From: Bacteroidota bacterium
Lineage (GTDB): Bacteria > Bacteroidota > Bacteroidia > 2-12-FULL-35-15
DNA: 63,798 bases
Direction of reading: 5' to 3'
NCBI GenBank assembly: GCA_040388455.1
Contig: JAZKBX010000100.1
Coordinates: 1-63,798 of the forward strand
The notes under the pieces were generated by a model. It searched no databases. It was not told the DNA's origin and saw only the letters and a program-made list of their open reading frames with translations. Positions 10,113 through 49,487 of this stretch are shown one piece after another. The position numbers and the translations under genes were made by a program. Each line of letters begins with the position of its first letter. The stretch's first letter is position 1.

Positions 10113-10126
10113 ATGATTTTAATCAT
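10113..10126 (+). promoter_or_regulatory. FNR/CRP-type box ATGAT-TTTA-ATCAT upstream of the U32 operon
   Basis: Perfect palindrome half-sites 48 nt upstream of ATG 10174; weak -7 (cATTG, G at 10155, 35.5 nt). Confidence 0.55.
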
Positions 10127-12198: not shown

Positions 12199-12248
12199 AT
12201 TTTATTATGATTAATAGATACATTTTTGTGTATCTAAACGTTCTATCC

Positions 12249-12971
12249 ATGTTAATTCCAACAAATAAACAAAAAGAAGTTCCGTCATGTGATAAATGTG
12301 ACTCTGCCAATAATTCTATATTTTGTGTTTTAAATAAAATAGAATTGGCTGATCTCTCAGATACTAAATCCCATATTTTTTATAAAAAGGGTCAAACGGT
12401 TTTTTATGAAGGTAACCACCCTCATGGATTGTATTGTATATATTCAGGAAAAGTAAAAATTCATAAATTAGGACACGATGGCAAGGATCAAATTTTACGT
12501 CTGGCCAAAAAGGCCAATGTTATAGGTTATCGCGCGCTGTTGAGTGATGATTATTATCATGCTTCCGCAACTGCACTGGAGGATTCGGTGATCTGTTTCT
12601 TTCCCAAAAAAGATTACCAAAATCTAATTGTTTCTAACCCACTACTTTCAATGCAGATCCTAAAACTGCTTTCTGCAGATTTAAAATCAGCCGAACAAAA
12701 AGCGATGAATATGGTGCAAAAGCAAGTCAAGGAACGCATTGCTGAAACATTACTTATGTTAAAAGAGTTTTTTGGATTAGAATCTGATAACGCAACCATT
12801 AACACTGTTCTTACGCGGGAAAGTATTGGAAATATTGCAGGTACAACAACTGAAACAGCAATAAGAACATTATCTGATCTGTGTAAGAATAAGACCATAG
12901 ATCTGATAGGAAAAAAAATAAAAATTTTAAATAATACAGAGCTTATAAAAATTGCGAATCTTAGCGACTAA
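12249..12971 (+). CDS. CRP/FNR-family regulator with an FNR-type N-terminal Cys cluster
   Basis: C-x2-C-x8-C (SCDKCDSANNSIFC) plus central Cys; cNMP-binding fold; HTH ..NIAGTTTETAIRTL. Start moved from 12207 to 12249 (promoter geometry, paralogue alignment). Confidence 0.85.
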   Translation: MLIPTNKQKEVPSCDKCDSANNSIFCVLNKIELADLSDTKSHIFYKKGQTVFYEGNHPHGLYCIYSGKVKIHKLGHDGKDQILRLAKKANVIGYRALLSDDYYHASATALEDSVICFFPKKDYQNLIVSNPLLSMQILKLLSADLKSAEQKAMNMVQKQVKERIAETLLMLKEFFGLESDNATINTVLTRESIGNIAGTTTETAIRTLSDLCKNKTIDLIGKKIKILNNTELIKIANLSD

Positions 12972-14129: not shown

Positions 14130-14272
14130 TTTTTGTTTTGGAAGGTTAGTCGAAATTTGTAATGCGAGGCTATATAGAATTAGCCTTCCTATTGAGCTTC
14201 TTTAGCAGCAAGTATTGTTTTTCTCTTCTTGTTATAATAAACAGTGTTCTCATCATTAAATTATATTTTAAT

Positions 14273-15313
14273 ATGTTTGGTATAGAGTTAAATTCATTTA
14301 AATTCAAAAACTTTGTTGTGCAGCGTATCGGCAAGGATACCTTTGTTAAGCCTGTGATTAAATTTATACAAGGCACCTCGTTTATCCTGGATTATTTGTT
14401 GTTTTATAAATTCAAGCTGATCAGAAATAGAAGTTCCATCACAGAAATCAATATTGAATTTGTTAGTTATTGCAATCTGCGTTGCAAATTGTGTTCACTC
14501 GATCATGAGAAGCCCAAAATAAGAATGAGTGCGGATGTTTTGAAGCGGTTCTTTGAAAATTTTTTAAGTGACAGTCGTTTTCGGAGTGTTAAAACCATTC
14601 ATCTGTATAATGCAGGTGAAGTTTTGCTTCATCCTAAATTAATTGAAATGCTTGATATTATTAAGCAATTTAAATTTGAGGCTCAGAAAAAAAATATTTT
14701 CTTTCCTCAAATTGCCTTATTAACAAATGCAACCATACTGGATGAAAAGAAATCGAAATTGCTAATCGCTTCAACTGTTATTGATAATATCCGTTTTAGT
14801 ATGGATGGGGGAAACAAAGAAAAATTTGAAGAGATGAGAGAGCGTGCTGAGTGGAATCTGTTTATTGAAAACATTAAAACATTCTGCGAATTGAATAAAA
14901 AAAGTGCTAAGCCTATACCAACAGGTATTATCACTTTAGTTGAGTATCACAATAAATTGAACACGAAATGGATGAGCAAGGAATTTCAGGAATTATTAAA
15001 CATGGTTGATGGATATGAGCTTCGTTATGCACATAATTGGGCAGGTGAAGTAGATATTAAAGAACTTAAAAATAAAAACAACACTAGTTACAAGGTAGGA
15101 TGTAGCTTGTTGATGCATCAATTGGTATTATTGCCTAATGGCGATATTACAGTTTGTTGTGCCGATTTAAATTCAAAGGGTGTAATTGGAAATATAACTA
15201 AAGAAGACCTGTTTTCAATTTATAATAAACCTCAACGATTAGAAATGCTGAAGAAATTTATTGATAATAAAAAACATGAAATTGATTTATGTAAAGATTG
15301 TGAAACGTTTTAG
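14273..15313 (+). CDS. Radical SAM enzyme with a Cys-rich SPASM/twitch-like C-terminus
   Basis: CNLRCKLC (CxxxCxxC); C-terminal ..ITVCCADLN.. and DLCKDCETF. The track start 14162 falls at or upstream of the predicted TSS, so M38 (14273) is preferred. Confidence 0.75.
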   Translation: MFGIELNSFKFKNFVVQRIGKDTFVKPVIKFIQGTSFILDYLLFYKFKLIRNRSSITEINIEFVSYCNLRCKLCSLDHEKPKIRMSADVLKRFFENFLSDSRFRSVKTIHLYNAGEVLLHPKLIEMLDIIKQFKFEAQKKNIFFPQIALLTNATILDEKKSKLLIASTVIDNIRFSMDGGNKEKFEEMRERAEWNLFIENIKTFCELNKKSAKPIPTGIITLVEYHNKLNTKWMSKEFQELLNMVDGYELRYAHNWAGEVDIKELKNKNNTSYKVGCSLLMHQLVLLPNGDITVCCADLNSKGVIGNITKEDLFSIYNKPQRLEMLKKFIDNKKHEIDLCKDCETF

Positions 15314-15367: not shown

Positions 15368-15412
15368 ATAATTGTTGAACCTTATATTCGAATTTTGAAA
15401 AAAAAAATTGCT

Positions 15413-16027
15413 ATGGATTTATTGATAAATTTTCCGGAAATAAAAAATGCATATTCGTATGTTGATTACAGGAACCTGATTACGGGGTTTGCTCAGGGGC
15501 GAAGCACAAGTGGCGAGGATCAGCTTTTTGAGCGAATTGAAGCTACGAAGTTAAATGCACATCGTATGAGGCGGATTGATAAACAGATAGAGCTCAGTGA
15601 TTCATTAAAGAAAACAATTCAAAACATTAACAAAAAAATAACGTTCATTGTTATTGCGGAATCATGGTGTGGAGATGGAGCTCAGAATATTCCCATGATT
15701 GCTAAAATTGCTGATTTTACTTCTAATATTGAATTAAAAATTATATTCCGTGATGAGAACATCGAAATAATGGACGCTTACCTTACAAATGGCTCAAGAT
15801 CTATCCCGAAAGTTATTTTCATTGATTCAGAAACGAAAGAAGAATTGGGAACCTGGGGTCCACGACCTGCTAAAATTCAGGAAATGGTGAAAGAATATAA
15901 AGCGCAATTTCCTGAAAGTTCTCATGATGATTTTGTGCGAAGCCTGCACCTTTGGTATGCGAAAGATATGGGTGAAGCATTGCAAAATGATTTTGAGAAA
16001 CTTCTTACCCCATGGACTGTTTGTTAA
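15413..16027 (+). CDS. Thioredoxin-fold family protein (monothiol WCGDG)
   Basis: ESWCGDGAQNIP motif, ~200 aa; start at ATG 15413. Confidence 0.7.
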   Translation: MDLLINFPEIKNAYSYVDYRNLITGFAQGRSTSGEDQLFERIEATKLNAHRMRRIDKQIELSDSLKKTIQNINKKITFIVIAESWCGDGAQNIPMIAKIADFTSNIELKIIFRDENIEIMDAYLTNGSRSIPKVIFIDSETKEELGTWGPRPAKIQEMVKEYKAQFPESSHDDFVRSLHLWYAKDMGEALQNDFEKLLTPWTVC

Positions 16028-16140: not shown

Positions 16141-16311
16141 TTAAATACTAACTACAACTGCCGCCAGCATACTAAGCCCGCCAATAAATGATAGGATAAT
16201 TAGGGTAAGCCCAATTTTATAGAATCTTTTACTTTTTAAAATATCACCTTGAATTAGCAAACCCATTGCAATTGAGGCGATCAACCAAAATACTCCGAAA
16301 AGAATAACCAT
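16141..16311 (-). CDS. Small (56 aa) two-TM membrane protein, below the ORF-track size cut-off
   Basis: MVILFGVFWLIASIAMGLLIQGDILKSKRFYKIGLTLIILSFIGGLSMLAAVVVSI*. Has its own palindromic box and -7 element at the canonical 36.5-nt spacing. Confidence 0.5.
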   Translation of the reverse strand: MVILFGVFWLIASIAMGLLIQGDILKSKRFYKIGLTLIILSFIGGLSMLAAVVVSI

Positions 16312-16361: not shown

Positions 16362-16375
16362 ATGATGGGTATCAT
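16362..16375 (-). promoter_or_regulatory. FNR/CRP-type box ATGAT-GGGT-ATCAT upstream of the 56-aa ORF
   Basis: Perfect half-sites. Centre is 36.5 nt from the G (16332) of a minus-strand TAtTTTTG. Confidence 0.6.
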
Positions 16376-16473: not shown

Positions 16474-16487
16474 ATGACATACATCAT
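16474..16487 (+). promoter_or_regulatory. FNR/CRP-type box ATGAC-ATAC-ATCAT upstream of the RIC operon
   Basis: Centre is 36.5 nt from the G of cAccTTTG (16517). Confidence 0.65.
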
Positions 16488-16571: not shown

Positions 16572-17525
16572 ATGGAAACGCTAAACATTCTTGATGTTAC
16601 CGTGCTAGAGCCTCGGTTAAAACATCCTACTATTTTTCAAAAATTTGATGAGCTTGAAAAAGGTGATGCATTTATTATTCACAATGATCATGATCCTAAG
16701 CCGCTTTATTATCAGCTACTGGCCGAAAGAGGAAATGTATTCACATGGCAATATCAGGAAGAAGGCCCTGAATGGTGGAAAGTGCAAATTAGCAAATTAA
16801 AGGAAGGAGAAAAGGAATCAACAATTGGCGAATTAGTTACAAAAGACTTTCGGAGAGCTGAAGTGTTTAAAAAATTCGGTTTAGATTTTTGTTGTGGAGG
16901 AAAAAAAACATTGACTAAAGCATGCAAGGAAAAAGGGCTTGATGTGGTGCAGATAGAAAAAGAGTTGAAAGCAATTGAAGAAATACCTTCGGCTCCTTCA
17001 CAGGATTATAATACCTGGGATCTGGATTTTCTTGCTGATTATATTTTGAATACGCATCATAAATATGTAACACAGGCAATTCCCGTGATTCAGGAGTATA
17101 CACAAAAAGTGGCAAAGGTTCATGGAGAAAGACATCCTGAAGCTATAGAAATAGCAAATAACTTTGTAAAAGTAGCTGATGAACTTCTGCGCCACATGGT
17201 GAAAGAAGAAAATGTGCTTTTCCCTTACATTAAAAAATTAGCGGCTGCTCAAAAAAGCGGAACTATGGTTGAACCTCCTCATTTCGGATCAATTACGAAT
17301 CCTATAAATATGATGGAAGCGGAACACGAAGAGGTTGGAAACGTTATGGAGAAGATCAATACGTTATCGTACGGTTATACACCTCCTGCAGATGCTTGTA
17401 CAACTTTTCGTTTATCATATGCGAAACTGAAGGAGTTTGAAGATGACCTTCACCAACACATACATCTTGAAAACAACATTCTTTTTCCAAAGGCAATTGC
17501 GCTGGAAAATGATTTATTTGAATAA
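16572..17525 (+). CDS. Iron-sulfur cluster repair di-iron protein (RIC/YtfE/ScdA) with an N-terminal DUF2249 domain
   Basis: DFCCGG ScdA_N motif; hemerythrin-like H..EE and H...E..LFP blocks; N-terminal DUF2249-like ~75 aa. Confidence 0.85.
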   Translation: METLNILDVTVLEPRLKHPTIFQKFDELEKGDAFIIHNDHDPKPLYYQLLAERGNVFTWQYQEEGPEWWKVQISKLKEGEKESTIGELVTKDFRRAEVFKKFGLDFCCGGKKTLTKACKEKGLDVVQIEKELKAIEEIPSAPSQDYNTWDLDFLADYILNTHHKYVTQAIPVIQEYTQKVAKVHGERHPEAIEIANNFVKVADELLRHMVKEENVLFPYIKKLAAAQKSGTMVEPPHFGSITNPINMMEAEHEEVGNVMEKINTLSYGYTPPADACTTFRLSYAKLKEFEDDLHQHIHLENNILFPKAIALENDLFE

Positions 17526-17692
17526 AATTCTGGCAAATTTATTTTGCCGGTTACCATTATAGAACGCAGATGACGCAGGTTGTTTTTTGATCAAATATGA
17601 TTTATCTACATCATAATAATTGTCAGCGTTATCAGCGTTCTACTTTGTTTTTTCACCTATTGGATCTTATGGTATTATTAATCATTTAGGCA

Positions 17693-18514
17693 ATGAACAT
17701 CTCCGCTACAACCAAAATTTCTGAACTCATCAAGGCTAATCCAGCCAGTATTGATGCCATCATAACAATTAATAAACATTTTGAAAAATTACGCAATCCT
17801 ATATTAAGGAAAATACTTGCCTCTAGAGTAACTATTGCAGATGCTGCTAAAATAGGCGGGTGTACCGTGAATGATTTTTTTAGTAAATTAATTCCTCTTG
17901 GGTTTTCACTTGCACCGGACACTGTTCCGATAATAAATAGCCCTATAACTGATAGGCAACGCCCTGCTTTCATGCAGAAAATAAATAGTGGCAATATCAT
18001 TACACTTGATGTGCGTGCAGATCTGGCATCAGGAAAAGACCCTTTTCAAGGTATCATGGATACTTTGCCTTCCTTATCGCAAGATAATTTTCTGCTTATC
18101 ATAAATACTTTTGAGCCACTTCCTCTTATTAACGTTTTGAAAAGAAAGGGGTTTGAATATTATACAGAAGAATTTCAAATAGATATTTTTCATACGTATT
18201 TTAAAAATACAACAGATAAAAAAAATGATAAAATAGATAGTGTTCTACTCACTAATTCTGCAAATAATGAATTTGCAGAAATACTGAACAAGTATATTGG
18301 GAAAATGGAAACCATTGATGTTAGGTACCTTGAAATGCCACTACCAATGGTTACTATTTTGCAGAAACTTAATACACTACAAGAAGGACATTCGTTATTT
18401 GTTCAGCATAAAAAGATCCCACAATTTCTTTTGCCAGAGCTCGAAGAAAATAAGTTCTCATGGATTATTCGGGAAGATGGGCCGGGTGATGTAAAGCTTT
18501 TAATTTTCAGATGA
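17693..18514 (+). CDS. DUF1858 plus two DUF2249 domains protein
   Basis: N-terminal ISELI...P....I....G..C..C-less DUF1858-like segment, then two DUF2249-like repeats (LDVR.., IDVRYLEMP). Confidence 0.65.
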   Translation: MNISATTKISELIKANPASIDAIITINKHFEKLRNPILRKILASRVTIADAAKIGGCTVNDFFSKLIPLGFSLAPDTVPIINSPITDRQRPAFMQKINSGNIITLDVRADLASGKDPFQGIMDTLPSLSQDNFLLIINTFEPLPLINVLKRKGFEYYTEEFQIDIFHTYFKNTTDKKNDKIDSVLLTNSANNEFAEILNKYIGKMETIDVRYLEMPLPMVTILQKLNTLQEGHSLFVQHKKIPQFLLPELEENKFSWIIREDGPGDVKLLIFR

Positions 18515-18515
18515 A

Positions 18516-19790
18516 ATGCAAAACGCACTGACTCAAAAAGGGCCTTCCGCAAGTGTGGTTATCCCACATTATATTTGTGGAGCATTTTTTTTTGTAGTCC
18601 TTTGTTTTTTTATTCTCTTTTCATCAGATGCTTTTATCGGACATTATTTCCATCCTAAACTATTAGCGATCACACATATTGCAGCATTAGGATGGGGAAC
18701 CATGATTATTTTTGGTGCTTTGTATCAATTACTTCCTGTTATTCTCGAAACACCTCTTTATAACGAAACACTGGCGAAAATAACTTTTGTCACTTTTACT
18801 GCCGGTGTAGTTTGTCTTGCCTGGGCTTTTTGGAATTTTTATATAGGCATACACATTCAGGTAGCTGCCATCTTGCTTTTGTTATCATTTTCGCTTTTGG
18901 TTATTAATGTTGTTATGACCGCCAACAAAGCTCCGAAATGGACTACGGAAGCTGATTTTATTGTTACTTCGGCTGTATGGCTTCTCCTTACCGGATTATT
19001 AGGCACACTCATGGCATTTAACTTTACGTATCCTTTATTAAACAAATCGCATTTGTTGTTTCTAAAGATCCATGCTCACCTTGGCATTGCCGGGTGGTTC
19101 GTTTTGCTTATCATGGGTGTGGGATCAAAACTTATTCCAATGTTTTTATTATCGCACAACCTGAACGCTAAAAAACTTAACTATGCCTACTATCTTGTTA
19201 ATATTGGATTAATTGGGTTTTCAGCAGATCTTTTCTTTCGTGATGAAAAAGCTTTTTTACATGTCTACGCACTGCTTATGGCATCCGGAATTTTATTTTT
19301 TATTTCATTTCTTTATGAAGCATACAAAAAAAGGGTTCGAAAACAATTGGATATAGGACTTAAACATTCGTTTATGGCATTTCTATTTTTTTTGCTTCCC
19401 ATCCTTATCGGTATTATTTTGAGTTTTAAGCCTTCTTTTAATGATAGATTCATGTTGCAGATTTATCTTGTTTACGGAGCAACCATTTTCTTTGGATTTA
19501 TCACTTCTCTGATATTAGGGCAGACATTCAAAACATTGCCTTTTATAATATGGATGCACAGGTATAGTAAAGTTGCCGGCCGTCAAAAAACGATGCTTCC
19601 TAAAGACCTGTATTCACAAACGCTTGTGAAGGCACAATATGTGGTTTATTTGGTGGCCTTGCCTACATTAATCGTAGGGATACTTCTTTCGGTATCTGTG
19701 GTGATAAAAACAGGTGGGGTACTTCTTCTTGCTACAGCAGTTTTATACACTATAAATGTTTTAAAGATAGTAATGCACAATTTTAAATAA
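18516..19790 (+). CDS. 12-TM integral membrane protein, distant haem-copper-oxidase subunit-I-like, built from three 134-aa repeats
   Basis: [H/A]-x4-G-[W/F]-x6-G-x6-P at residues 54, 188 and 322. The TM2 segment resembles NorB/CcoN helix II (H..L..W......G..Y.L.P). Confidence 0.7.
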   Translation: MQNALTQKGPSASVVIPHYICGAFFFVVLCFFILFSSDAFIGHYFHPKLLAITHIAALGWGTMIIFGALYQLLPVILETPLYNETLAKITFVTFTAGVVCLAWAFWNFYIGIHIQVAAILLLLSFSLLVINVVMTANKAPKWTTEADFIVTSAVWLLLTGLLGTLMAFNFTYPLLNKSHLLFLKIHAHLGIAGWFVLLIMGVGSKLIPMFLLSHNLNAKKLNYAYYLVNIGLIGFSADLFFRDEKAFLHVYALLMASGILFFISFLYEAYKKRVRKQLDIGLKHSFMAFLFFLLPILIGIILSFKPSFNDRFMLQIYLVYGATIFFGFITSLILGQTFKTLPFIIWMHRYSKVAGRQKTMLPKDLYSQTLVKAQYVVYLVALPTLIVGILLSVSVVIKTGGVLLLATAVLYTINVLKIVMHNFK

Positions 19791-19803
19791 ACAAATAAAT
19801 ATC

Positions 19804-20127
19804 ATGGAAAATATACTTGAGTCAGAAAATATTGGGGTTGAAATATATGACGCTCTTAAAACAGTTATTGATCCCGAGCTAGGGGTTAATATTATCGATC
19901 TGGGCCTCGTTTATAAAATTGAATATAGTGTGGATAAAGGAATAGAAGTTGATGTAACGCTTTCAACAAAAGGCTGCCCGATGGCCGATATAATAATGGA
20001 TGATATTCAAACCACTTTAGCTGGGAAATTCCCTAAGGAAAAATTAAATATTGAGTTAGTCTGGGAACCAGTTTGGACTTCCGATTTTATGACTCCAGCC
20101 GGGAAATTCGCCTTGGGGCGGCTATAG
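19804..20127 (+). CDS. DUF59 (SufT/MIP18-like) Fe-S assembly-associated protein
   Basis: L..V.DPELG.NI.DLGLVY pattern, 107 aa. Confidence 0.8.
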   Translation: MENILESENIGVEIYDALKTVIDPELGVNIIDLGLVYKIEYSVDKGIEVDVTLSTKGCPMADIIMDDIQTTLAGKFPKEKLNIELVWEPVWTSDFMTPAGKFALGRL

Positions 20128-21892: not shown

Positions 21893-22660
21893 TTAAAGAT
21901 CTTTTTTGTGAAATATTCTTAAGGAAAAGTAGAGTGGTATAGCGATCCATAGCCCAAGCGCGAGGAGTGCAGCTATAAATCCGGTGGTGGTTCCAAAGAA
22001 ATCTTTAAATATAGCACCGGTATACCCCATGAGGGCAGAGACATCCAATCTTAATAATATGATTATTCTACTGAGATCGATCGGGTTAAATGCGCTAAGT
22101 GCCATCATTGGTTTTTCGAGAGGATAATCAGCAAATTGAAACAGAAGAAAAAGTACCAGTCCATCAAAAATTATTGCAAAATATAACCAGAGAAAAATAG
22201 CCATTCCCATACCTTTGGCTTTATCTCTGGTTAATACAGAAGCTAATAAAGCAATAGCGACAAATATAATTGAAAGCATACAGCCTATAAGAATCATAAT
22301 TATACCCGTTGGAGATGGTTCGAAGTAAAGGATCGGTAACCCGGAGCCAATTAAAAATGAAACAACCAGGGAAGTAGATAAGCCTGAAAACAAGCTTAAC
22401 CATATACTTTTTCTTTGTAATGGCTGACTTACCAGTAATTCAATAAATTCAGAGCTGTTATAAATATAGATGGTGGAAAAAATAATGGAAACTAAAGGAA
22501 CAATAAACAGTTCCAGGTTTAACAAACTTAATAATCCTTTTGCTGTATTATCCTCAAGACTGAATACGCTAAAGGAAATTAAAAATAACAATATCGTGTA
22601 TGCGATTATGATCTTGCTACGCAATATATCCAGGATCACATATTTTACAACTTTTCTCAT
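21893..22660 (-). CDS. nosY: Nitrous-oxide reductase maturation ABC permease NosY
   Basis: Six-TM ABC-2 type permease; ATGA overlap with nosF; nos context. Confidence 0.8.
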   Translation of the reverse strand: MRKVVKYVILDILRSKIIIAYTILLFLISFSVFSLEDNTAKGLLSLLNLELFIVPLVSIIFSTIYIYNSSEFIELLVSQPLQRKSIWLSLFSGLSTSLVVSFLIGSGLPILYFEPSPTGIIMILIGCMLSIIFVAIALLASVLTRDKAKGMGMAIFLWLYFAIIFDGLVLFLLFQFADYPLEKPMMALSAFNPIDLSRIIILLRLDVSALMGYTGAIFKDFFGTTTGFIAALLALGLWIAIPLYFSLRIFHKKDL

Positions 22661-23370
22661 AATTGATTTTGAAGCATTATTTTAGCAATAGCTTTTGAAA
22701 GCTTTTCTTCACCTGTTTCTTTTTTGAGCAAATTAATTTCCTTTTGAAATTTTAATTTTCCATCCTGCATATATACAATTTGAGTGATCAGATCGTCCAA
22801 TTCACTTAATACATGGGAGGTGATAATTATTAATTTACCCTTTGTTTTTTCTTTTACTATTTTTTCTTTTAATATTTCGGACGATACCGGATCCAGACCT
22901 GCTGTTGGTTCGTCAAGAATAAGTACATCAGCATTAAATAAAAAAGCTAAGGAAGCACTCACTTTTTGTCTTGTTCCCCCGGATAATGTTCTCATCCGTT
23001 TATTCATAATATCGTGCAGCGCAAATTTTTCAACCAACTCTTCATCAAGCACATTTTTTTCGGATTTCCGAATATCCTTCATCATATTAATAACTTGTCC
23101 AATGGTCATGTTATCGGGGTAACGTCCTATCTGCGGCATGTAACCAATTTGAGAACGATATTTCCAGTTTTTTGAGATACTGATTTTGTTAAATAAAATC
23201 GATCCTGCATCAGGCACAACCATGCCCAGGATACTTTTGATCAGCGTTGTTTTTCCGCTACCATTAGGACCAATTAGTGCAATACATTCTCCACTGTTAA
23301 ACTGAAGATTCAGCTGATCAAGGGCTTTAAGTTTACCAAAATGTTTTGAGATGTTATTTATTGTGATCAT
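22657..23370 (-). CDS. nosF: ABC transporter ATP-binding protein NosF
   Basis: Walker A GPNGSGKTT, signature LSGGTRQK, Walker B LILDEP. Confidence 0.85.
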   Translation of the reverse strand: MITINNISKHFGKLKALDQLNLQFNSGECIALIGPNGSGKTTLIKSILGMVVPDAGSILFNKISISKNWKYRSQIGYMPQIGRYPDNMTIGQVINMMKDIRKSEKNVLDEELVEKFALHDIMNKRMRTLSGGTRQKVSASLAFLFNADVLILDEPTAGLDPVSSEILKEKIVKEKTKGKLIIITSHVLSELDDLITQIVYMQDGKLKFQKEINLLKKETGEEKLSKAIAKIMLQNQL

Positions 23371-23542
23371 TGGTTCTATAATGTTTCTTGTGGTAAATTA
23401 TATTTAACCACATGATTCATAGTTATTGCTATATTAATTTATAATGTCCCGATAAATTCAGAAAACATAGAGAAGGCATTGTTTTAAAGATTGTTTTTTA
23501 TGTTATTTAAATGTTTCTAAGTGTTTTTTTTAATTGAAAGAA

Positions 23543-24796
23543 TCACAAATCAATTGCCCTCATTAAAGGGAAATCATCTTTAAGATTTTCAGGGGTTAAA
23601 GATGGTATTATTTTTTCAGTTTTATCTAATAAAGAAACCATAATACTTCGGAAAAGAATCATGGCTTGAGGATTTTGTTCAATGATCATTGAAAACATAC
23701 TGATAGGACGGTAAGCAATATCTCCGATTTTATTCCTGTTAATATCATACCCTTCATATTTGTCCCAATAGTTGTAATTAAAAGAATTTAATACAAGGAA
23801 ACCATTGGTTCCAATATCAAAAGTATTTCCTAAAAAATTATTAAAATTAAGACTTACATTCATGCAACTTGCCTGAATTTTGATTGCCCAACCGTTTCGT
23901 GAAAAGGTGTTTTTTTGCACAGGAGTGTTGTTCACTCCTTCCATGTAGATACCACTTGTGTTTTCAAGAAATTTATTTCCATTAATATAGCTGTCAGATA
24001 TTTCTTTTAACAATAGCCCGTAAGCTGCATCACCCCAGTTATTAGAAAAAACATTATTGAACATTTTTACACGATGAGTGAACATAACGGATACTCCTGC
24101 ACCATTTTCGCTGAATACATTGCTTATATAGGCGTCATCGTTCGAAAACATAAAATGGAGCCCATAACGGATGTTTTTTTTAGAAATATTTCTCCAGATC
24201 ACAGAATGGGTTACAAACTCAAAATAAATACCATCTCTATGACCTGTTATCTTGTTTCCAATAATCTGTAAATTTTCGCATTTCCAGCAATGAATACCAT
24301 TTCCGATTTGTTGTTCCTCTTTGCCATACGAGGTTATTTGATTGTTTTTAATAATGCAGTTTTTTCCGGACTGGAGGTATATTCCAAAAAATGTATCGTC
24401 TATAATGTTGTCAGATATGGTTACGTATTCCGATTCATAGACTTTTATTGCGGCAACATCATCAAGTGTTCCATAGCCGCTGTGTTGCAATTTGAATCCC
24501 ATGATTTGAACATGGTTAGCTTTGATGGATATGATCTCATATTTACCTTCCCCATCCAGTACAGGGCGGTTTTGACCAATAAGGGTTAATGGTTTATCAA
24601 TAATAATATTTTTTTCAAAATAAATTCCTGATGAAACAAGGATTGTGTCGGAAGCATTGGCGATATTAACTGCTTTTTGAATTGTATTTGATACAGCCCC
24701 CTTTGCAACATATATAGTAGTTGCATTAAGCAGCTGCGAAAATAATACAAAAGCACATACCCCAATGAACTTTAAGAGGTTGGATGTTAAAAACAT
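23543..24796 (-). CDS. nosD: Periplasmic copper-processing protein NosD (parallel beta-helix repeats)
   Basis: Repeated ..N.I..N... beta-helix units. Start moved to ATG 24796, which forms a TAATG overlap with the upstream stop and exposes a signal peptide (MFLTSNLLKFIGVCAFVLF). Confidence 0.85.
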   Translation of the reverse strand: MFLTSNLLKFIGVCAFVLFSQLLNATTIYVAKGAVSNTIQKAVNIANASDTILVSSGIYFEKNIIIDKPLTLIGQNRPVLDGEGKYEIISIKANHVQIMGFKLQHSGYGTLDDVAAIKVYESEYVTISDNIIDDTFFGIYLQSGKNCIIKNNQITSYGKEEQQIGNGIHCWKCENLQIIGNKITGHRDGIYFEFVTHSVIWRNISKKNIRYGLHFMFSNDDAYISNVFSENGAGVSVMFTHRVKMFNNVFSNNWGDAAYGLLLKEISDSYINGNKFLENTSGIYMEGVNNTPVQKNTFSRNGWAIKIQASCMNVSLNFNNFLGNTFDIGTNGFLVLNSFNYNYWDKYEGYDINRNKIGDIAYRPISMFSMIIEQNPQAMILFRSIMVSLLDKTEKIIPSLTPENLKDDFPLMRAIDL

Positions 24797-25824
24797 TATT
24801 TTACAGGCATAAGTTGAGTCCATGTAACTTCCTCTCCACCCAATTGTGTGGCGTAAAATTTCAAACTATCCCGGGATGAAAAGGCTGCTATGTCACCCCC
24901 CATAGGTGTTTTAAGTTGATCGCTTTTTAAATAAAAACTGTTTTGACTTTTAATTAGTGCGTGGCCATTACAAAAATCTGTAAAATAAATATCTTTGATA
25001 TTATCCATCTTAATACCACCCTCCGATATTTCGGAAAAGAGGCATTTCGAATCATCATATTTAAATGCTCTGCCTTTTTTTGTCAGGATTTCGGCACCGT
25101 ATTTATTGTCACTGATGGTCATTTTACAAAAATTGCAGTTGTCCTTACCAATCTTGATTGGCTCCGGTTCAATCGAACATCCTGAAATTGAAAAGATAAG
25201 GAGAGCGATTGGTAAAATCGATTTTAACTTGTTCAATATTCCTTCTTTACTTTTTATACGATGATCAATAATAATACATACGAGTAGGAGTACACCGGCA
25301 ACAATAAAAAGCCAGCCTCCAATATCAGGTATTGAATATGCTCCGAAATTAAGTAGTTGCTTATATCCTATCAATGGTGGTTGATAGGCCATTCCCGGAA
25401 CAATAATAGCAGCATTCGGATCGAGGTTATGTCCGTAATTATATTCCCATTTCCAGAAATCAATCATTGCAATTGTCCCAAAGAGCAGGAACGAGATAAA
25501 TAATACATACATTAATTTTCTCTTACCTATTATCGCAACAAGGATAAAGAATAATGAAAAAATTGCGATCAGGTACGGAAGAATTTTAAACTCAATGAAA
25601 TCTTCATTATGTAAGGTTTTCATACCAATGTAATGGTTCAACCCATTTATTATAGCTACATCACCACCTAAACCATTTGCATTTATTGTTATCATTAATC
25701 CTTCGGGATATTGTGGCGCGGCCAGTTCAATTCTCCAGATGGGATTAAATAAAACAAAGACTAACATGATACCACACAAAAATAGAGTTATTCTTAATTT
25801 GATGTTTAATTGTATGTTTTTCAT
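24796..25824 (-). CDS. nosL: NosB-like 4-TM domain continuous with a NosL copper-chaperone domain (single ORF)
   Basis: Residues 1-190 are a 4-TM module. Residues 197-216 are a complete lipoprotein signal (NKLKSILPIALLIFSISGC). Then a NosL-like C-x2-C-x-M (CNFCKM) and ..PMGG.I.AF. Confidence 0.75.
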   Translation of the reverse strand: MKNIQLNIKLRITLFLCGIMLVFVLFNPIWRIELAAPQYPEGLMITINANGLGGDVAIINGLNHYIGMKTLHNEDFIEFKILPYLIAIFSLFFILVAIIGKRKLMYVLFISFLLFGTIAMIDFWKWEYNYGHNLDPNAAIIVPGMAYQPPLIGYKQLLNFGAYSIPDIGGWLFIVAGVLLLVCIIIDHRIKSKEGILNKLKSILPIALLIFSISGCSIEPEPIKIGKDNCNFCKMTISDNKYGAEILTKKGRAFKYDDSKCLFSEISEGGIKMDNIKDIYFTDFCNGHALIKSQNSFYLKSDQLKTPMGGDIAAFSSRDSLKFYATQLGGEEVTWTQLMPVK

Positions 25825-25836
25825 AATTAATAGTGT

Positions 25837-25874
25837 AAAAAAAAGCGTGAGTTCAATTGGATAGGACTCACGCT
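25837..25874 (-). terminator. Intrinsic terminator/attenuator between nosZ and the accessory nos genes
   Basis: On the minus strand, hairpin GCGTGAGT..ACTCACGC followed by T8. A second hairpin lies at 25892-25921. Confidence 0.6.
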
Positions 25875-25936
25875 GATTAAATCTTTATATAATCCTGACA
25901 GGTTTTTTAACCTATCAGGATTGATTTTGCAATAAA

Positions 25937-27928
25937 CTATTTAGTTGCAGCAGAGGCTTCAGGTAAATTTGTTCCAGTGCTAAATAATAAAGGAACATTG
26001 CTTCCTGCAGGCGATACACGAAGGTAACCTGTCATCTCCTGATGCAAAGCACTACAGAAGTCGGTGCAATAAAATGGATATATTCCAATTTTTTCTGGAT
26101 TCCATTTCAATGTGCAAGTTTCTCCCGGCATTATTAATAATTCACCGTTATTGGCACCTTTGATTGCAAAGCCATGTGGAACATCCCAATCTTGTTCAAG
26201 GTTGGTAACATGGAAATATACTTCATCGCCCACTTTAATACCTTCAATATTATCAGGTGTAAGGTGAGAACGAATAGCAGTCATATATACATGAACTTTA
26301 TTTCCTTCTCTAACAATTTTGGTTTCTTTTTCTCCCATTGAAACGTATGGATGTTTATTCTCACTTATTTTAAATATTTTCACTGATTTATCTTTTATAA
26401 GATCAGCTTTTACCATTTGGGCATAATGAGGTTCACCAATAGTAGGATAATCAAGGATCATTTGCATTTTATCTCCACTTATATCAATAAGTTGTGCACT
26501 TTGAGATAATTCAGGGCCTGTAGGTAAATAACGATCTTTTGTAATTTTGTTATATGCGATCATGTATTTTCCATAAGGAGTTTTTGTATCTCCACCAGCA
26601 ACACAAAGGTGCCCAATTGAATAGAATGTAGGGATCTTATCAAGTACTTTTAAGTCTTTAATGCTCCATTTAGTGATTTCTGAAGACACAAACATAGAAG
26701 TATAAGCATTTCCTTTATCATCAAATTCGGTATGAAGAGGTCCTAAGCCAGGTTTTTTAACTTCACCATGTAATACGGATTCGTATTTTAAAACAGGAAT
26801 ACCTTCGTAATCACCGGCATAATCTTTTGCTTCAATAGCTTTTAACATTTTATCAAAGCTGAATACCGGAATCAACGCTGCTAATTTACCACTTGCAACA
26901 ATATACTCTCCTGTAGGACTTACATCACAACCATGTGGTGATTTAGGGCAAGGCATGAAATAGAATAGATCCTTAAATTCTTTGAAATCAAGAACCGTTA
27001 CTTCTGTTTTAATCTCGGATGTTGCAGAATGAGTTATATCACTGTATGTGTTATGGGCATATCTAACTTTTTGTTTTCTGCCTTTTCCAGCTTTGATATA
27101 CTCTTCCGCCTTTTTCCAGTTAACCGCCATGATAAAATCTTTATCTCTTTGAGAAGCATTTACTTCCAACAAAGTATTCGCTTGTTCTGTATTATACATA
27201 GAAAAGAAAAACCAACCATGAGAAACCCCTTTACCAGCACGGCTAAGATCGAAGTTCACACCCGGGCATTGTAATTGAAAGGCAATGTCCATTTTACCAT
27301 CTTCTTTACCTACACTAATGAAGGATAAAGTTCCTTTAAAGTTCTTTTTATAGGTATTAATTGGCACATCACCATTAGCATCATCAGGAGGTATGCTAAA
27401 ACGGGTCCCAGCTACAACATATTCTGTGTTTTCTGTAATGAACGGGGAAGAGTGATTACCGCCACTGTTTGGTAATTCAATAATTTCAGCTGTTCTAAAT
27501 GTTGTAAGATCAATTCTGGCAACACGAGGCGTATTGTTGGCATTACCAAAAACCCAACGGCCGTCATATTCTCCGTTTGTTTTAGAAACCTGTACGTGAT
27601 GTAAATCATCCCAAGGCACAAAACCATGCGAAGTATTTAACATTGGTTTTGTTTCTTCTGAATACCCATAACCTTTTTCGGGATCAACAGAAAAAACAGG
27701 CATTACACGAAGTAAACGACCTGAAGGGATACCATAAACAGACATTTGTCCGCTAAATCCTCCACTCACGAAGTTATAAAATTCATCATACTTTCCGGGA
27801 GCAACATATACTTTAGAAGCTGCATCACCACTTACCGCATTACTTACATTTTTGGGTTTACAGGAAACCATCCCTCCAACCGAAAGAATTAAAAGTAGTG
27901 AAGCGCTGTTAACTAATTGCGTTTTCAT
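25937..27928 (-). CDS. nosZ: Nitrous-oxide reductase, clade II (Sec/lipoprotein-type signal)
   Basis: CuA motif CTDFCSALHQEM at the C-terminus; beta-propeller body; no twin-Arg; lipobox GGMVSC. Confidence 0.95.
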   Translation of the reverse strand: MKTQLVNSASLLLILSVGGMVSCKPKNVSNAVSGDAASKVYVAPGKYDEFYNFVSGGFSGQMSVYGIPSGRLLRVMPVFSVDPEKGYGYSEETKPMLNTSHGFVPWDDLHHVQVSKTNGEYDGRWVFGNANNTPRVARIDLTTFRTAEIIELPNSGGNHSSPFITENTEYVVAGTRFSIPPDDANGDVPINTYKKNFKGTLSFISVGKEDGKMDIAFQLQCPGVNFDLSRAGKGVSHGWFFFSMYNTEQANTLLEVNASQRDKDFIMAVNWKKAEEYIKAGKGRKQKVRYAHNTYSDITHSATSEIKTEVTVLDFKEFKDLFYFMPCPKSPHGCDVSPTGEYIVASGKLAALIPVFSFDKMLKAIEAKDYAGDYEGIPVLKYESVLHGEVKKPGLGPLHTEFDDKGNAYTSMFVSSEITKWSIKDLKVLDKIPTFYSIGHLCVAGGDTKTPYGKYMIAYNKITKDRYLPTGPELSQSAQLIDISGDKMQMILDYPTIGEPHYAQMVKADLIKDKSVKIFKISENKHPYVSMGEKETKIVREGNKVHVYMTAIRSHLTPDNIEGIKVGDEVYFHVTNLEQDWDVPHGFAIKGANNGELLIMPGETCTLKWNPEKIGIYPFYCTDFCSALHQEMTGYLRVSPAGSNVPLLFSTGTNLPEASAATK

Positions 27929-27993
27929 AAAAAATTGTTTATTTATTTGTTTGTTTAATTATTGATTGCTATTATTTATATGCCAAGGACTAT

Positions 27994-28482
27994 TTATGGA
28001 TTAACTCCATCATTTTTGCGCATGAATTCCAATAGGTTTCTTGCTTCCTCATCGGTCAAACTTTGATTTGGCATACGCACAAGGCATATTTCCAACATTG
28101 CTTGTGCCTCAGGATCTTTATCAATCATTGGGTCGGGATTTGTAATAAAATTCATGATCCAATCCGGATGTCTGCGTGTTGTTACACCTGCCCAGCCCGG
28201 ACCAACCAATTTTTCACCGGTAAGTTTGTGACATGCAGAGCATTTCACATCAAATGTTTTTAAACCTGCTTCCGCCATCTGAACATTTAGTTTTTCATCA
28301 AGTTCAACATCTTCAAATTTCCCTTCACCACGTTTGGGGTCATAACTTGGGTTTTCACTTGCTTCTGTTGTTTCAGTTTTTGTAGCTTCTGTTCCTTCTG
28401 CTACCTTATTTGACTTGTCATCTCCGCACGAAGACACAATTCCTAATAATCCTAAGATTGATAGTACGACTATTTTTTTCAT
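27994..28482 (-). CDS. Monohaem c-type cytochrome lipoprotein (NosC-like electron donor)
   Basis: Lipobox IVSSC; CSACH; distal Met region; first gene of the nos operon. Confidence 0.85.
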   Translation of the reverse strand: MKKIVVLSILGLLGIVSSCGDDKSNKVAEGTEATKTETTEASENPSYDPKRGEGKFEDVELDEKLNVQMAEAGLKTFDVKCSACHKLTGEKLVGPGWAGVTTRRHPDWIMNFITNPDPMIDKDPEAQAMLEICLVRMPNQSLTDEEARNLLEFMRKNDGVNP

Positions 28483-32423: not shown

Positions 32424-33146
32424 TTATTTTTCTTTATCACCTGCTAATTTCCTGAGGTTAGATTCATTGGGTATTATAAAATTTTTGCCATCTATTTTAA
32501 TTATTTTTTTTGTTTCCAGTTGAGTTAGGTTCCTTATAACACTTTCATAAGTGGTCCCTGCTATATTGGCAATATCCTTGCGTGGAAGAGTGTAATTAAG
32601 TTTGTGTTTTTCTTTTGGGTTATAGCCAAAAGCATCAATCAACGTGCAAATAATTTTTGCCACCTTTGTTATCACCTCTCCATGAATCATGTGTTTCATT
32701 TGTTCTTCGGTTTTTCGTAATTCATCCGAAAAGAAAGTGATCAGAAAAAGGCTAAATTCAGGATTTGTTTTTATTAATTTTAGGAAAATTTCAATGGGAA
32801 TAAAAGTAACTTCAGTATCCGAAAGTGCTATTGCGGAGATGGGGTAATTTTTAGATGACATACCTCTGTGACCAACCAGAGAGCCCTTGTTTGCTAATCG
32901 TAAAATTCGTTCATTGTTTTTGTCAAAAGCAGAAACAACCTTTACCATTCCTTTATTTATGAAGTACACTCCGGTTACTTTATCACCTTCGGTTATAATT
33001 CGTTGGTCTTTTTTGAAATGTTTTACTACTAAAAAACTTTTTACCAAAAACATCCATTCATCTGAGCAATAACCCGACAAAAAACGTTCGAATTCATTTA
33101 AAGATGTTCCTTTTGTATTTTTACTATTTCCTACTTTCTTTATCAT
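32424..33146 (-). CDS. CRP/FNR-family regulator without an N-terminal Cys cluster
   Basis: cNMP-binding fold; HTH DIANIAGTTYESVIRNL; no C-x2-C motif. Confidence 0.85.
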   Translation of the reverse strand: MIKKVGNSKNTKGTSLNEFERFLSGYCSDEWMFLVKSFLVVKHFKKDQRIITEGDKVTGVYFINKGMVKVVSAFDKNNERILRLANKGSLVGHRGMSSKNYPISAIALSDTEVTFIPIEIFLKLIKTNPEFSLFLITFFSDELRKTEEQMKHMIHGEVITKVAKIICTLIDAFGYNPKEKHKLNYTLPRKDIANIAGTTYESVIRNLTQLETKKIIKIDGKNFIIPNESNLRKLAGDKEK

Positions 33147-37643: not shown

Positions 37644-38846
37644 TTACTGTAACCCAGGTAATTTGTGAACTTCAACCAGTTGTCCGGCTTTTATGTTTTC
37701 GCTTTCTTCGGGTAAATATATCAGGCAATCAGCTGATGCGAAGGAGCTTAAAATATATGATTCCTGGCCATCAAGAGGAATAACGGTATTGTCGGAAATT
37801 TCACCTTTCAGAAAAAAAGAGAGCCCCTTTTTTTTAACATAATCGGATGCTATAGGCATTTGAGTTTGGGTCCCCCCCATTGAGTAAGGAAGAGTAGATC
37901 CCATCATCAATCTTATTGCCGGATAAACATATTCATAAAAACACGTTAAAACCGCTGCTGGATTACCGGGTAACGCAAAAATAAAAGTGTTTTTATACTT
38001 TCCAAAATATAAGGGTTTCCCTGGTTTTTGTTTTACTTTATAGAAAATAGTTTGTACTTCTAATTTATTTAATGCTCTTTCTACAAAATCATAATCACCA
38101 ACAGAAATACCCCCTGATAATAATAAAATATCACAGGAATCAATCGAATTTGCAATAATAGTATTTGTTTCGACCTCATTATCTGGTACTGATTGAGCAC
38201 CTTCTGTTGGAATTCCAATACTTTTTAAAGCGGCAATGATACTGTATGAATTGGATTCATAAATTTGTCCTCCTGACAATATATTTCCGGGCTTTTGCAA
38301 TTCGCTCCCCGTAACAATTATCTTAACCTTGGGTTTTCGAATTACATTTACATTGGTAATTCCCATGCCGGCAATAAAACCAATAGCAGCCGCTGTAAGG
38401 CTTGTGCCTTTCGGTAGCGCCAATTCATTTTTTTCTATTTGCGATCCTTTTGAACGAATGTTTGCGTATTGTTTTATTGCTACATCAAGAATTTGTAATT
38501 GATCGTTTTCAAGTGTTATTTTTTCCTGCATAACTATACAGTCAGCACCATCAGGAACCAGTGCTCCGGTAAAAATCCGGATTGCCTGTCCGGATATTAA
38601 AGTTCCTTTAAAAGAATCTCCGGCAGCTACTTCAGCAATTACATTTATTTGTAAATTATTTTTAAAATTCTCAAAAATAAATGCATAACCGTCCATTGCC
38701 GACTGGTTAAACGGAGGAAGAGCAAGAGGAGAATATATATCTTCGGCTAATACATAACCATAAGCATTATCAATCGAAATATTTTCAACTGATAATAAAT
38801 GTATGTTTTCGATAACCGCTTGTTTGGCTTTTTCTACAGATAACAT
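37644..38846 (-). CDS. moeA: Molybdopterin molybdotransferase MoeA
   Basis: 400 aa; ..S.MDGYA.., ..I.TG...P.GAD.VV..E; LLSGG.SVGD.D. Confidence 0.85.
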   Translation of the reverse strand: MLSVEKAKQAVIENIHLLSVENISIDNAYGYVLAEDIYSPLALPPFNQSAMDGYAFIFENFKNNLQINVIAEVAAGDSFKGTLISGQAIRIFTGALVPDGADCIVMQEKITLENDQLQILDVAIKQYANIRSKGSQIEKNELALPKGTSLTAAAIGFIAGMGITNVNVIRKPKVKIIVTGSELQKPGNILSGGQIYESNSYSIIAALKSIGIPTEGAQSVPDNEVETNTIIANSIDSCDILLLSGGISVGDYDFVERALNKLEVQTIFYKVKQKPGKPLYFGKYKNTFIFALPGNPAAVLTCFYEYVYPAIRLMMGSTLPYSMGGTQTQMPIASDYVKKKGLSFFLKGEISDNTVIPLDGQESYILSSFASADCLIYLPEESENIKAGQLVEVHKLPGLQ

Positions 38847-40635: not shown

Positions 40636-41523
40636 TTATTTTTGTGTAGTGAGATCGATCCATTGTGAATAATGTTTTTTTCCACTTATATTTTCAAAAT
40701 GTCCGTTCCAGATTGCGAACGCAATTTTTGTTGGTATAGTCAGGGGAGCATCATCCTTATCAGGTGAAACCATAGGGCGGGTAAAAATCACTTTCCAGGT
40801 ATTGTTTTCCCATACACCCCATGCAGTGGCATTCTGATTGGTTTGAGTTGTGAGGGTTCCAAAACTCTCTGCCATACATTCTTCAGAAGGTTCTTTTCTA
40901 TCAAAGATGGACATTGGATTTCCTGCATAGGCTGCGGGCATGAAATTTTTGCCGGCCCCTTTAGAATAATCAAGTGCTGAAATATCTTTTGCAAACTTCC
41001 CTTTGGTTCCATCCCCTTCTTTTTCTGCCATTGGATAAATATCTGCCCAGTAATTCGGATATGCATCCTTCACGTCACGGAAGCCGTTTTCAACATCATG
41101 CTGCCAAATTGCTTTCCAATGAATGATATGCACTCGTCCATTTTTGTTACCCATCATAAAAATCGGAAGGGTGTCAGGGTGCATCGGTAATTGAATTGCC
41201 ACTTGGTCGCAGAACTTATCTGCCTCAACAATCATATCTTTTGTTGAATCAGTCCACTCCAATAAAAAAGCTATAGTGGTTCCATCATTAATGGATTTTA
41301 CTTTTATGTTTTTTACTGATGGAATAGTTAACATCGGAGTAGTGATGTTTTGTGGAAGCACAGGAATAGTAGTCGCTTGGATATCCTTCCATACTGCATT
41401 ATTTACTTCACGAAAAGGAATGTTCGCTGCTTTCCCCGATTTTATTATGATTGCAGTTGGTTGGGCAGTTGCAATACTCTCTGACAGTGCTGTTATTGCC
41501 GCTAGAAAAATTAGTTTTTTCAT
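40636..41523 (-). CDS. Periplasmic haem-b gamma subunit, ethylbenzene-dehydrogenase (EbdC/NxrC/SerC)-like
   Basis: Sec signal peptide, no further TM, ~270-aa beta-rich domain, downstream of beta. Confidence 0.65.
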   Translation of the reverse strand: MKKLIFLAAITALSESIATAQPTAIIIKSGKAANIPFREVNNAVWKDIQATTIPVLPQNITTPMLTIPSVKNIKVKSINDGTTIAFLLEWTDSTKDMIVEADKFCDQVAIQLPMHPDTLPIFMMGNKNGRVHIIHWKAIWQHDVENGFRDVKDAYPNYWADIYPMAEKEGDGTKGKFAKDISALDYSKGAGKNFMPAAYAGNPMSIFDRKEPSEECMAESFGTLTTQTNQNATAWGVWENNTWKVIFTRPMVSPDKDDAPLTIPTKIAFAIWNGHFENISGKKHYSQWIDLTTQK

Positions 41524-41570
41524 GTTTCGTTTTTTTATAATTATTAATCCTTTTGAAATTAATTTTTATT

Positions 41571-42701: not shown

Positions 42702-42759
42702 GATAATTTCTGTTTTTAGTTAAACTATTACTAAATAATTCGGTGCTTAATATTTAAGA

Positions 42760-48491: not shown

Positions 48492-48544
48492 CTTTTGTAG
48501 AAGAGATTCTTTTTTACTTTGCAGTATATTTTAAAGATTTGGAA

Positions 48545-49432: not shown

Positions 49433-49487
49433 ATTTTAAAAATTTTCCTGCTAATATCTTTGTTGTGTTAATATTAATAATTTGAAA

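Follow-up and report, generated by a model that had tools for sequence, protein, structure and literature searches.

A three-unit membrane protein with a predicted haem-copper oxidase subunit I fold, encoded between DUF2249 and DUF59 genes in Bacteroidota

A gene cluster of a Bacteroidota bacterium (assembly GCA_040388455.1, contig JAZKBX010000100.1), analysed here within the whole stretch of positions 1-63,798 (63,798 nt, hereafter the window), encodes a 424-aa membrane protein on the forward strand (18516-19790), flanked by genes for proteins of the RIC, DUF2249 and DUF59 types. This protein consists of three mutually homologous units of four transmembrane (TM) helices each and, judged from its modelled structure and its profile similarities, is a member of the haem-copper oxidase (HCO) superfamily with the 12-helix fold of subunit I, in a form that lacks the ligands of the binuclear centre. 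The evidence for the triplication and for the kinship with HCOs is laid out first, followed by the conserved residues, the gene neighbourhood and the role that the protein might play in nitrate and NO respiration.

Three homologous four-helix units

An earlier note on this DNA had spoken of 'three exact 134-residue repeats' in the membrane protein. The spacing is indeed exact: the motif [HA]x4G[WF]x6Gx6P has no more than three occurrences, which are found at residues 54, 188 and 322 (codons starting at 18675, 19077 and 19479). The sequence itself, however, is not repeated exactly: in the single sequence, 33 of 290 positions (11.4%) are identical at offset 134, which is not the best-scoring offset and is equalled by several others; a search for a DNA repeat with a 402-nt period found none; and pairwise identity among the modules is 12-22%. 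Module 3 carries, in addition, a 16-residue insertion after the motif, located on the cytoplasmic side behind TM10. The low identity at offset 134 is what would be expected if the triple motif were a coincidence in a hydrophobic protein, in fact an unrelated transporter, and the same can be said of the single-sequence search of PDB sequences with phmmer, which returned noise only, so that profiles were required.

For the repeat test, family alignments were split at the module borders and the resulting profiles compared by hhalign. Two alignments were used, A1 with 25 homologues (49-93% identity) and A2 with 113 diverse homologues (down to 24% identity), along with reversed-sequence controls that preserve composition and hydrophobic segments. 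With A1, module 1 matched module 2 (P = 2.4e-4) and module 3 (P = 2.6e-7), the register being as predicted in each case (54 to 54 and 58 to 58 within modules), and modules 2 and 3 did not match each other significantly with these 25 sequences. With A2, the three pairs matched at P = 2.1e-15, 2.6e-15 and 1.2e-13 across 125-132 columns, that is, over all four helices, whereas the reversed-sequence controls scored 13-19 (P = 0.0097-0.13). In the aligned columns, H54 corresponds to H188 and A322, and I52 to H186 and Y320. Thus, a single sequence is weak evidence for the repeat, and the repeat is taken as real because the family profiles match significantly when set against the reversed controls. 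The protein is made of three mutually homologous 4-TM units, as the earlier note had proposed, and its internal repeat is significant at the profile level. Coincidence is refuted, with practically no probability left to it, by the profile-profile matches in the expected register (P = 1e-13 to 2e-15), the reversed controls being clean, and by the fold matches described below, of which the best 50 of 60 are all HCO subunit I.

All on the forward strand, the three units follow one another closely. Unit 1 (residues 1-139, TM1-4; 18516-18932) holds H54 (codon 18675-18677), with helices placed by AlphaFold2 at residues 12-35, 47-77, 84-107 and 112-137. Unit 2 (residues 140-275, TM5-8; 18933-19340) holds H186 (codon 19071-19073) and H188 (codon 19077-19079), with helices at 144-171, 179-211, 218-241 and 248-271. 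In unit 3 (residues 276-424, TM9-12; 19341-19787), Y320 (codon 19473-19475) and A322 replace the histidines, and the helices are placed at 280-303, 310-350, 368-391 and 394-419.

That the triplication of HCOs is normally invisible in sequence, another statement of the earlier note, agrees with a detectability control made with the NorB-like HCO family of the same window (gene at 50659-51987). When its units were compared in the same way, unit against unit gave P = 0.13-0.21, like the reversed controls. The triplication is therefore readable in the membrane protein but not in an ordinary HCO, a contrast that is to be taken as indicative, as the control alignment (62-100% identity) is somewhat shallower than A1.

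A subunit I fold and its kinship with CcoN and NorB

The AlphaFold2 model computed with A2 has 12 TM helices (pLDDT 96.6, pTM 0.94). When it was searched against the PDB with Foldseek, 60 matches were obtained at E <= 0.001, the best 50 of which are all HCO subunit I (TMq 0.64-0.77). These include CcoN of cbb3 oxidases (9g6b_A, 3mk7_A and 8smr_E, TMq 0.76-0.77), NorB of cNOR (3o0r_B, TMq 0.71, and 4xyd_A, 0.64), and subunit I of aa3, bo3 and ba3 oxidases. The earlier note had named an unrelated transporter fold as the outcome that would undo its proposal; the Foldseek matches listed are all HCO, and the proposed subunit I fold is borne out both by them and by the Pfam model COX1 (PF00115), whose score of 37.8 bits lies just over the gathering score of 34.8. 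The COX1 match aligns residues 114-240 with profile positions 275-399, and 85 of the 113 family members match the model. Both features that mark the superfamily are thus found, namely 12 TM helices in three 4-helix units and significant similarity to subunit I. Existing database labels of family members read 'cytochrome c oxidase subunit I' or 'cbb3-type ... subunit I'.

Profile comparison with CcoN chains gave E = 1.3e-9 to 1.2e-7, with the family's 'GHYF.P..LaltHlavLGW...GalyQLvP' aligned to 'SHYTDWTIGHVHAGALGW...GSLYHLIP' of CcoN. H54 aligns in this way with the second His of the 'HVH' of CcoN helix X, which in HCOs is a ligand of the low-spin haem. As to the HCO unit that is the counterpart of each module, different profiles give different answers. 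Against CcoN, the best match of unit 1 is helices IX-XI, that is, helix X (E = 1.7e-9); the Pfam model places module 2 at helix X; and modules 1, 2 and 3 all match best unit 1 of the window's NorB-like family (P = 6.8e-10, 7.3e-5 and 3.2e-4). The suggestion of the earlier note that module 1 resembles helix II of NorB/CcoN accordingly holds in part, as module 1 does match the helix II-IV unit of the NorB-like protein (P = 6.8e-10), but its best match in CcoN is helix X.

Taken together with CcoN and NorB, the membrane protein has the same predicted fold (TMq 0.71-0.77), a helix-X-like H-x-H...G-W...G...Y..P in common and a profile E of about 1e-9. It differs from them in having neither the His of helix VI nor the HH of helix VII, in retaining, for each site pattern, a single haem-ligand position out of three, in being shorter (424 aa), in having no CcoO or NorC gene adjacent, and in its detectable internal repeat.

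Conserved residues and predicted cofactor sites

Three residues only, H54, H186 and G193, are invariant in all 113 members. The histidine pattern given in the earlier note (H54, H186 and H188, with Ala at 322) is present in the window protein, but the pair that is invariant across the family is H54 and H186, H188 being kept in 79 of 113 members (70%). Further histidines are kept in about half of the members: H179 in 64, H43 in 62 and H18 in 54 of the 113. Y320 accompanies H188 in 71 of 79 members and occurs in 6 of the 34 that lack it (Fisher P = 9e-14, phylogeny not corrected for).

The catalytic set of six histidines in HCOs (one in helix II, one in helix VI, two in helix VII and two in helix X) is not found, Y320 and A322 of unit 3 standing at helix-X-type positions. 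Whether the mapping is taken as colinear or as permuted, neither TM7 nor TM11 has a His pair that would match the CuB/FeB ligands of helix VII. In addition, no gene for a cytochrome c, CuA (CoxB), CcoO, NorC or a quinol domain is adjacent in the window or in the 80 related loci described below, where the neighbours are genes for soluble proteins of the DUF2249, DUF59 and RIC types. Because the CuB/FeB histidines are absent and no gene for a redox partner subunit is adjacent, the membrane protein is, as far as its sequence tells, not a catalytic oxidase or NO reductase (NOR) of known type. The minimal HCO-fold protein envisaged by the earlier note is met with here as a version without the CuB site.

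A catalytic NO (or O2) reductase that has escaped recognition, with H188, Y320, H179, H43 and H18 forming a novel active site in place of the CuB/FeB triad, would be in keeping with the HCO fold, with the denitrification context, with the invariance of the extra histidines in the close subfamily and with the existence of NOR families with altered active sites (PMC11214002). It is nevertheless highly unlikely, given that the extra histidines are found in 54-79 of the 113 members whereas two histidines are universal, that TM7 and TM11 lack an HH pair, that 0 of 80 loci have an adjacent gene for a partner of the cytochrome c, CuA or quinol-domain kind, and that the window already encodes a cytochrome c and a NorB-like HCO.

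As for the universal pair, the comparison with HCO geometry is informative. The inner helices II, VI and X of HCOs are related by a pseudo-threefold axis. On helix X there is a pair of histidines, spaced by two residues, of which one is directed to the pore shared with the preceding unit (haem a3/b3) and the other to the pore shared with the following unit (low-spin haem). The His of helix II faces the pore shared with the preceding unit. By this scheme, H54 in TM2 would be a 'following-pore' residue and H186 in TM6 a 'preceding-pore' residue, pseudo-symmetric to the second His of helix X and to the His of helix II, the axial ligands of the low-spin haem. Since H54 and H186 would stand at positions related to those of the low-spin ligands, one bis-His haem b is expected, which is predicted to lie in the pore between units 1 and 2, bounded by TM2-TM6, toward the outer face. 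The covarying pair of H188 (TM6) and Y320 (TM10) may constitute a second cofactor site in the next pore, particular to this subfamily.

The topology derived from the positive-inside rule is N-in/C-in. One polar or basic residue per unit is found at the cytoplasmic ends of TM2, TM6 and TM10, namely Q71 (110/113), K/R205 (91/113) and K339 (108/113), and one proline per unit occupies symmetry-related positions (P74, P208 and P342). If the helices pack as in HCOs, Q71, K205 and K339 would ring the pseudo-threefold axis. Such a conserved ring would suit a channel or transporter in which iron, haem, nitrite or NO passes through the HCO pores and which feeds iron to the DUF59 and RIC proteins, a function for which we know of no precedent among proteins of the HCO fold. 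The iron-handling company of the gene could be cited for it as well, as passages of PMC8117158 on iron donation by RIC and of PMC4982691 on DUF59/SufT would allow. An invariant His pair on symmetry-related inner helices, however, is the signature of haem ligation in the superfamily, and transport is judged to be decidedly unlikely.

Relation to described families

The concept that emerges is supported here and is not new, having been published in kind in 2014. Pei, Li, Kinch and Grishin (Protein Sci 2014, 23:1220) reportedly described HCO-homology (HCOH) proteins built from conserved 4-TM evolutionary units; among these are said to be 12-TM three-unit families, most like HCO helices IX-XII, in which two conserved histidines likely bind one haem, and their genomic context was reportedly linked to denitrification and NO detoxification and to DUF2249. 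The membrane protein is like them in its three homologous 4-TM units, in H54 and H186 being kept in 113/113 members, in the absence of a binuclear centre and in its DUF2249 and denitrification gene neighbours. What is added here is the covariation of H188 with Y320, the DUF59 fusions, the synteny in 80 of 80 loci and the FNR-like box, some of which may already be in Pei et al. No use of the term HCOH outside Pei et al. was found in the literature searched. A passage of PMC11218638 states the association of DUF2249 with the HCO superfamily, and one of PMC4602095 the similarity between the HCO core and the MAPEG trimer, both citing Pei et al. The novelty that the earlier note implied is thus lost: HCOH proteins from 4-TM units were described in 2014, and the association is cited in PMC11218638.

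Membership in NnrS (PF05940) was considered and rejected, with no match for the window protein at E <= 0.1 and none for the 113 members at E <= 0.01. According to Pei et al., NnrS is said to belong, as a membrane protein with 12 TM helices, to the wider HCO-related group. NnrS, which contains haem and copper, is co-expressed with genes of the NO response; in Vibrio, its part is an auxiliary and protective one, and it is not the main NO detoxifier (PMC3345576). The likeness between the two consists in a 12-TM membrane protein with NO-linked genes. In contrast to NnrS, which binds copper, the membrane protein has no plausible family-conserved Cu site, and its partners are DUF2249 and DUF59 proteins instead.

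A conserved gene module

The four genes of the cluster, all on the forward strand, were given in the earlier note with exact coordinates, and Pfam and TIGRFAM scans agree with its domain assignments. The first (16572-17525, 317 aa) encodes a di-iron protein of the RIC type (repair of iron centres, YtfE/ScdA type) with an N-terminal DUF2249; its Pfam domains are DUF2249 (7-75), ScdA_N (82-135) and Hemerythrin (157-308). Its score of 253.9 bits against TIGR03652, above the cut-off of 204.7, assigns it to RIC, and it falls below the equivalog cut-offs for YtfE and ScdA. The second (17693-18514, 273 aa) encodes a DrpB-like protein, recognised in Pfam by a DUF1858 followed by two DUF2249 domains, and its stop codon is separated from the start of the membrane-protein gene by a gap of 1 nt. 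The fourth (19804-20127, 107 aa) encodes a DUF59 protein (FeS_assembly_P, SufT-like; PF01883, 55.3 bits against a cut-off of 23.5), which on its score of 77.3 bits against the SufT model TIGR02945 (cut-off 143.4) is classed as a DUF59 protein and not as a SufT equivalog.

Relatives of the membrane protein are numerous. A word-indexed search returned 2090 matches in Bacteroidota metagenome-assembled genomes and isolates (e.g., Pontibacter and Rufibacter), and an exhaustive search 1975 representative clusters (50% identity) at E <= 1e-3. In a scan of species-representative genomes, at least 559 stretches encode a relative, and the best 80 of these at least 559 loci, from Bacteroidota, Ignavibacteriota and Chlorobiota, were analysed. 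A DUF1858/DUF2249 gene lies directly upstream of the membrane-protein gene in 80 of 80 loci, a DUF59 gene directly downstream in 77 of 80 (at least two of the other three being cut at or just after the gene), and a RIC gene upstream in 55 of 80. The co-occurrence that the earlier note put up for checking is thus seen in all of these loci for DUF2249 and in 55 of 80 for ric, and the conserved module is a DUF2249-domain protein, then the membrane protein, then DUF59, often with RIC before. At 26-30% identity, the same triad is still found in Polyangia, in Armatimonadota and in metagenomes, near Nar-type reductases, hemerythrins and Crp genes. In Polyangia, the order is Crp, hemerythrins, sigma54 activator, DUF2249 genes, the HCO-like gene and DUF59, then cytochrome c and a NarG-like gene; on a metagenomic contig, genes for a Nar-type reductase immediately precede the triad.

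In five representative clusters (P0134, P0141, P0143, P0168 and P0181), a C-terminal DUF59 is fused to the membrane protein, giving products of 522-536 aa. As the fusions are C-terminal and the topology is N-in/C-in, DUF59 would be located on the cytoplasmic face. A different arrangement is seen in P0212 (862 aa), two stretches of which match the query and which has no Pfam match; it could be a tandem or another extended version.

Two of the soluble partners have characterised counterparts. DrpB of Thermus thermophilus, with DUF1858 and two DUF2249 domains, is membrane-bound without TM helices and acts in nitrate respiration (PMC6282519). The DrpB-like product has an identical architecture and shares the link to nitrate respiration; the Thermus operon, in turn, consists of drpAB only, downstream of nar, and no HCO-like or DUF59 gene is reported there (PMC6282519). 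The RIC product has the ScdA_N and hemerythrin domains of RIC/YtfE/ScdA proteins, which passages of PMC9052748, PMC8117158 and PMC12412097 connect with nitrosative stress, iron donation and nitrite reduction, and differs from them in its extra N-terminal DUF2249.

These partners also raise the question of signalling, with the membrane protein as a haem sensor for NO (or nitrate/nitrite) that relays its state to the DrpB-like protein, which in turn modulates the expression of denitrification genes, a role that has been proposed for DrpA/DrpB of Thermus. Loss of DrpA/DrpB renders nar/dnr expression nitrate-independent, and DrpB associates with the membrane (PMC6282519); coupling to the DrpB-like gene is seen in 80 of 80 loci, and Crp/Fnr genes and a sigma54 activator occur near several loci. 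None of the proteins of the conserved module, however, has a DNA-binding, kinase or cyclase domain; it is with DUF59, an Fe-S assembly domain, that the tight linkage and the fusions are seen; and the bicistronic drp operon of Thermus functions without an HCO-like gene (PMC6282519). A signal transducer is therefore a secondary possibility, on balance improbable.

An FNR-like box and a denitrification island

Two FNR/CRP-like palindromes lie between the RIC gene and a divergent ORF of 56 aa. The first, ATGATGGGTATCAT (16362-16375), is about 50 nt upstream of the start of this ORF, and the second, ATGACATACATCAT (16474-16487), is 98 nt upstream of the RIC start and is the 'box at 16474' of the earlier note. 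That box proves to be part of a larger set, as the window contains 14 sites of the form ATGAY-N4-RTCAT (TGA-N6-TCA core) where 0.40 would be expected. The 14-nt sites are at 10113, 12185, 12547, 14116, 15354, 16362, 16474, 28545, 37619, 46878, 48397, 49419, 53682 and 58071, most of them just upstream of ORFs, including the RIC gene (two sites), the cytochrome c-nosZ operon and genes for Crp/Fnr, radical-SAM/SPASM, Thioredoxin_9 (thioredoxin-like) and U32 peptidase proteins. In 28 of the 80 related loci, a palindrome stands no more than 400 nt upstream of the first cluster gene (30 matches against about 1.1 expected). By its distribution, the set looks like one regulon across the whole island. 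A sigma-70 promoter scan of the window was uninformative (23 found against 21 expected).

Denitrification genes surround the cluster. A complete nos cluster (21893-28482, reverse strand) lies 1.8 kb downstream of the DUF59 gene and comprises cytochrome c (27994-28482), NosZ (25937-27928), a NosL-domain protein (24796-25824), NosD (23543-24823), an ABC ATPase (22657-23370) and an ABC-2 permease (21893-22660), that is, the set nosZ-L-D-F-Y. A type II DMSO-reductase family enzyme, NarG/H-like, with an alpha subunit of 1159 aa, a beta subunit of 376 aa and a haem-b gamma subunit of 295 aa, is encoded together with MoeA at 40636-46239 (reverse strand) and 37644-38846, in the company of a cytochrome c (46352-46765); the enzyme probably acts in the periplasm as a nitrate (or chlorate/selenate) reductase of the Nar type. 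Four genes for Crp/Fnr-family regulators are present (12207-12971, 32424-33146, 48539-49264 and 49482-50225), two of them adjacent and one with a palindrome 22 nt before its start.

Further along, on the forward strand (50237-51987), a monohaem cytochrome c (141 aa) is followed by the divergent 442-aa HCO that served as the control above (50659-51987). It matches COX1 over its full length (110 bits), its JGI homologues are named NorB, and its ccoN score is 45 bits against a cut-off of 583. It has His49, HH239/240 and H318/H321/H326, and its helix VI region (SWNMLVYG) lacks His. It might be a cNOR relative or a member of the cNOR-related family of putative membrane N2O reductases (PMC11214002). 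The label 'nNOR' was considered for it and dropped, as PMC11214002 contradicts the supposed Asn-substituted active site of nNOR.

With nos, a Nar-like reductase and a NorB-like HCO in the window, and with the synteny in other genomes, the tie to NO and denitrification that the earlier note saw in the genomic company of the protein is supported. Judged from these sequences, the module lies under an FNR-like box inside a denitrification island and is predicted to be co-regulated with denitrification genes.

Some smaller features adjoin the cluster. The divergent 56-aa ORF (16141-16311, reverse strand) encodes a small, strongly hydrophobic product with two hydrophobic stretches, probably two TM segments as judged by eye; it is kept in the closest relatives only (L005 100%, L007 88%, L010 38%). 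Directly upstream of the cluster, a radical-SAM/SPASM gene (14162-15313) and a Thioredoxin_9 gene (15395-16027) are each preceded by a palindrome, and a thioredoxin-like gene stands alongside the cluster in 6 of the 80 related loci only.

Proposed role

The reading that we favour, with more confidence than doubt, is that the membrane protein is a haem-carrying accessory of nitrate/NO respiration tied to iron-centre repair proteins. The DUF59 and DrpB-like proteins would dock on its cytoplasmic face and be anchored there at the membrane; such physical coupling is suggested by the DUF59 fusions, the 1-nt gap to the DrpB-like gene and the membrane-bound DrpB of Thermus. The complex could then work as a membrane cytochrome through which the redox pool of the membrane is connected with the cytoplasmic proteins that repair iron centres (RIC and DUF59), and/or its haem could capture membrane-dissolved NO. 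In either case, Fe and Fe-S centres would be protected or restored during NO exposure, much as has been proposed for NnrS.

Several points weigh against this role. Haem binding by H54 and H186 is itself predicted, as are its stoichiometry and the metal content, and the putative site between the two histidines is drawn from symmetry reasoning and alignments. The predicted haem would lie near the outer face and the partner proteins in the cytoplasm, and one haem alone could not take electrons from one side of the membrane to the other; with hexacoordinate bis-His ligation, the haem would bind NO poorly; and no quinol site was identified in the protein. The link to RIC appears to be facultative, because RIC is missing in 25 of 80 loci and the fusion gene P0143 has no DUF2249 neighbour. 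Finally, no experiments on any family member were found in the literature searched.

Implications

The observation on sequence architecture repeats the insight of Pei et al. (2014), and its value is that of a candidate for experiment, not of a discovery. In its most far-reaching form, the proposal is of a two-haem transmembrane cytochrome (bis-His at H54/H186 and an unusual His/Tyr site at H188/Y320) that is coupled to DUF59 and DrpB-like proteins as a membrane-anchored machine for iron-centre repair and protection during denitrification, with a near-symmetric three-unit architecture that preserves a pre-catalytic state ancestral to HCOs and NO reductases; as a whole, this is unlikely. The family is large, with 1975 clusters and at least 559 species genomes, and in Bacteroidota as well as other phyla it is found within denitrification islands, which have a bearing on the fluxes of NO and N2O. 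Should the haem site and the partnership with DUF59 and DrpB-like proteins prove true, they would provide a testable handle on a membrane part in the protection of iron centres under NO and on what DUF2249 and DUF59 proteins do, as well as a view of a pre-catalytic HCO scaffold.

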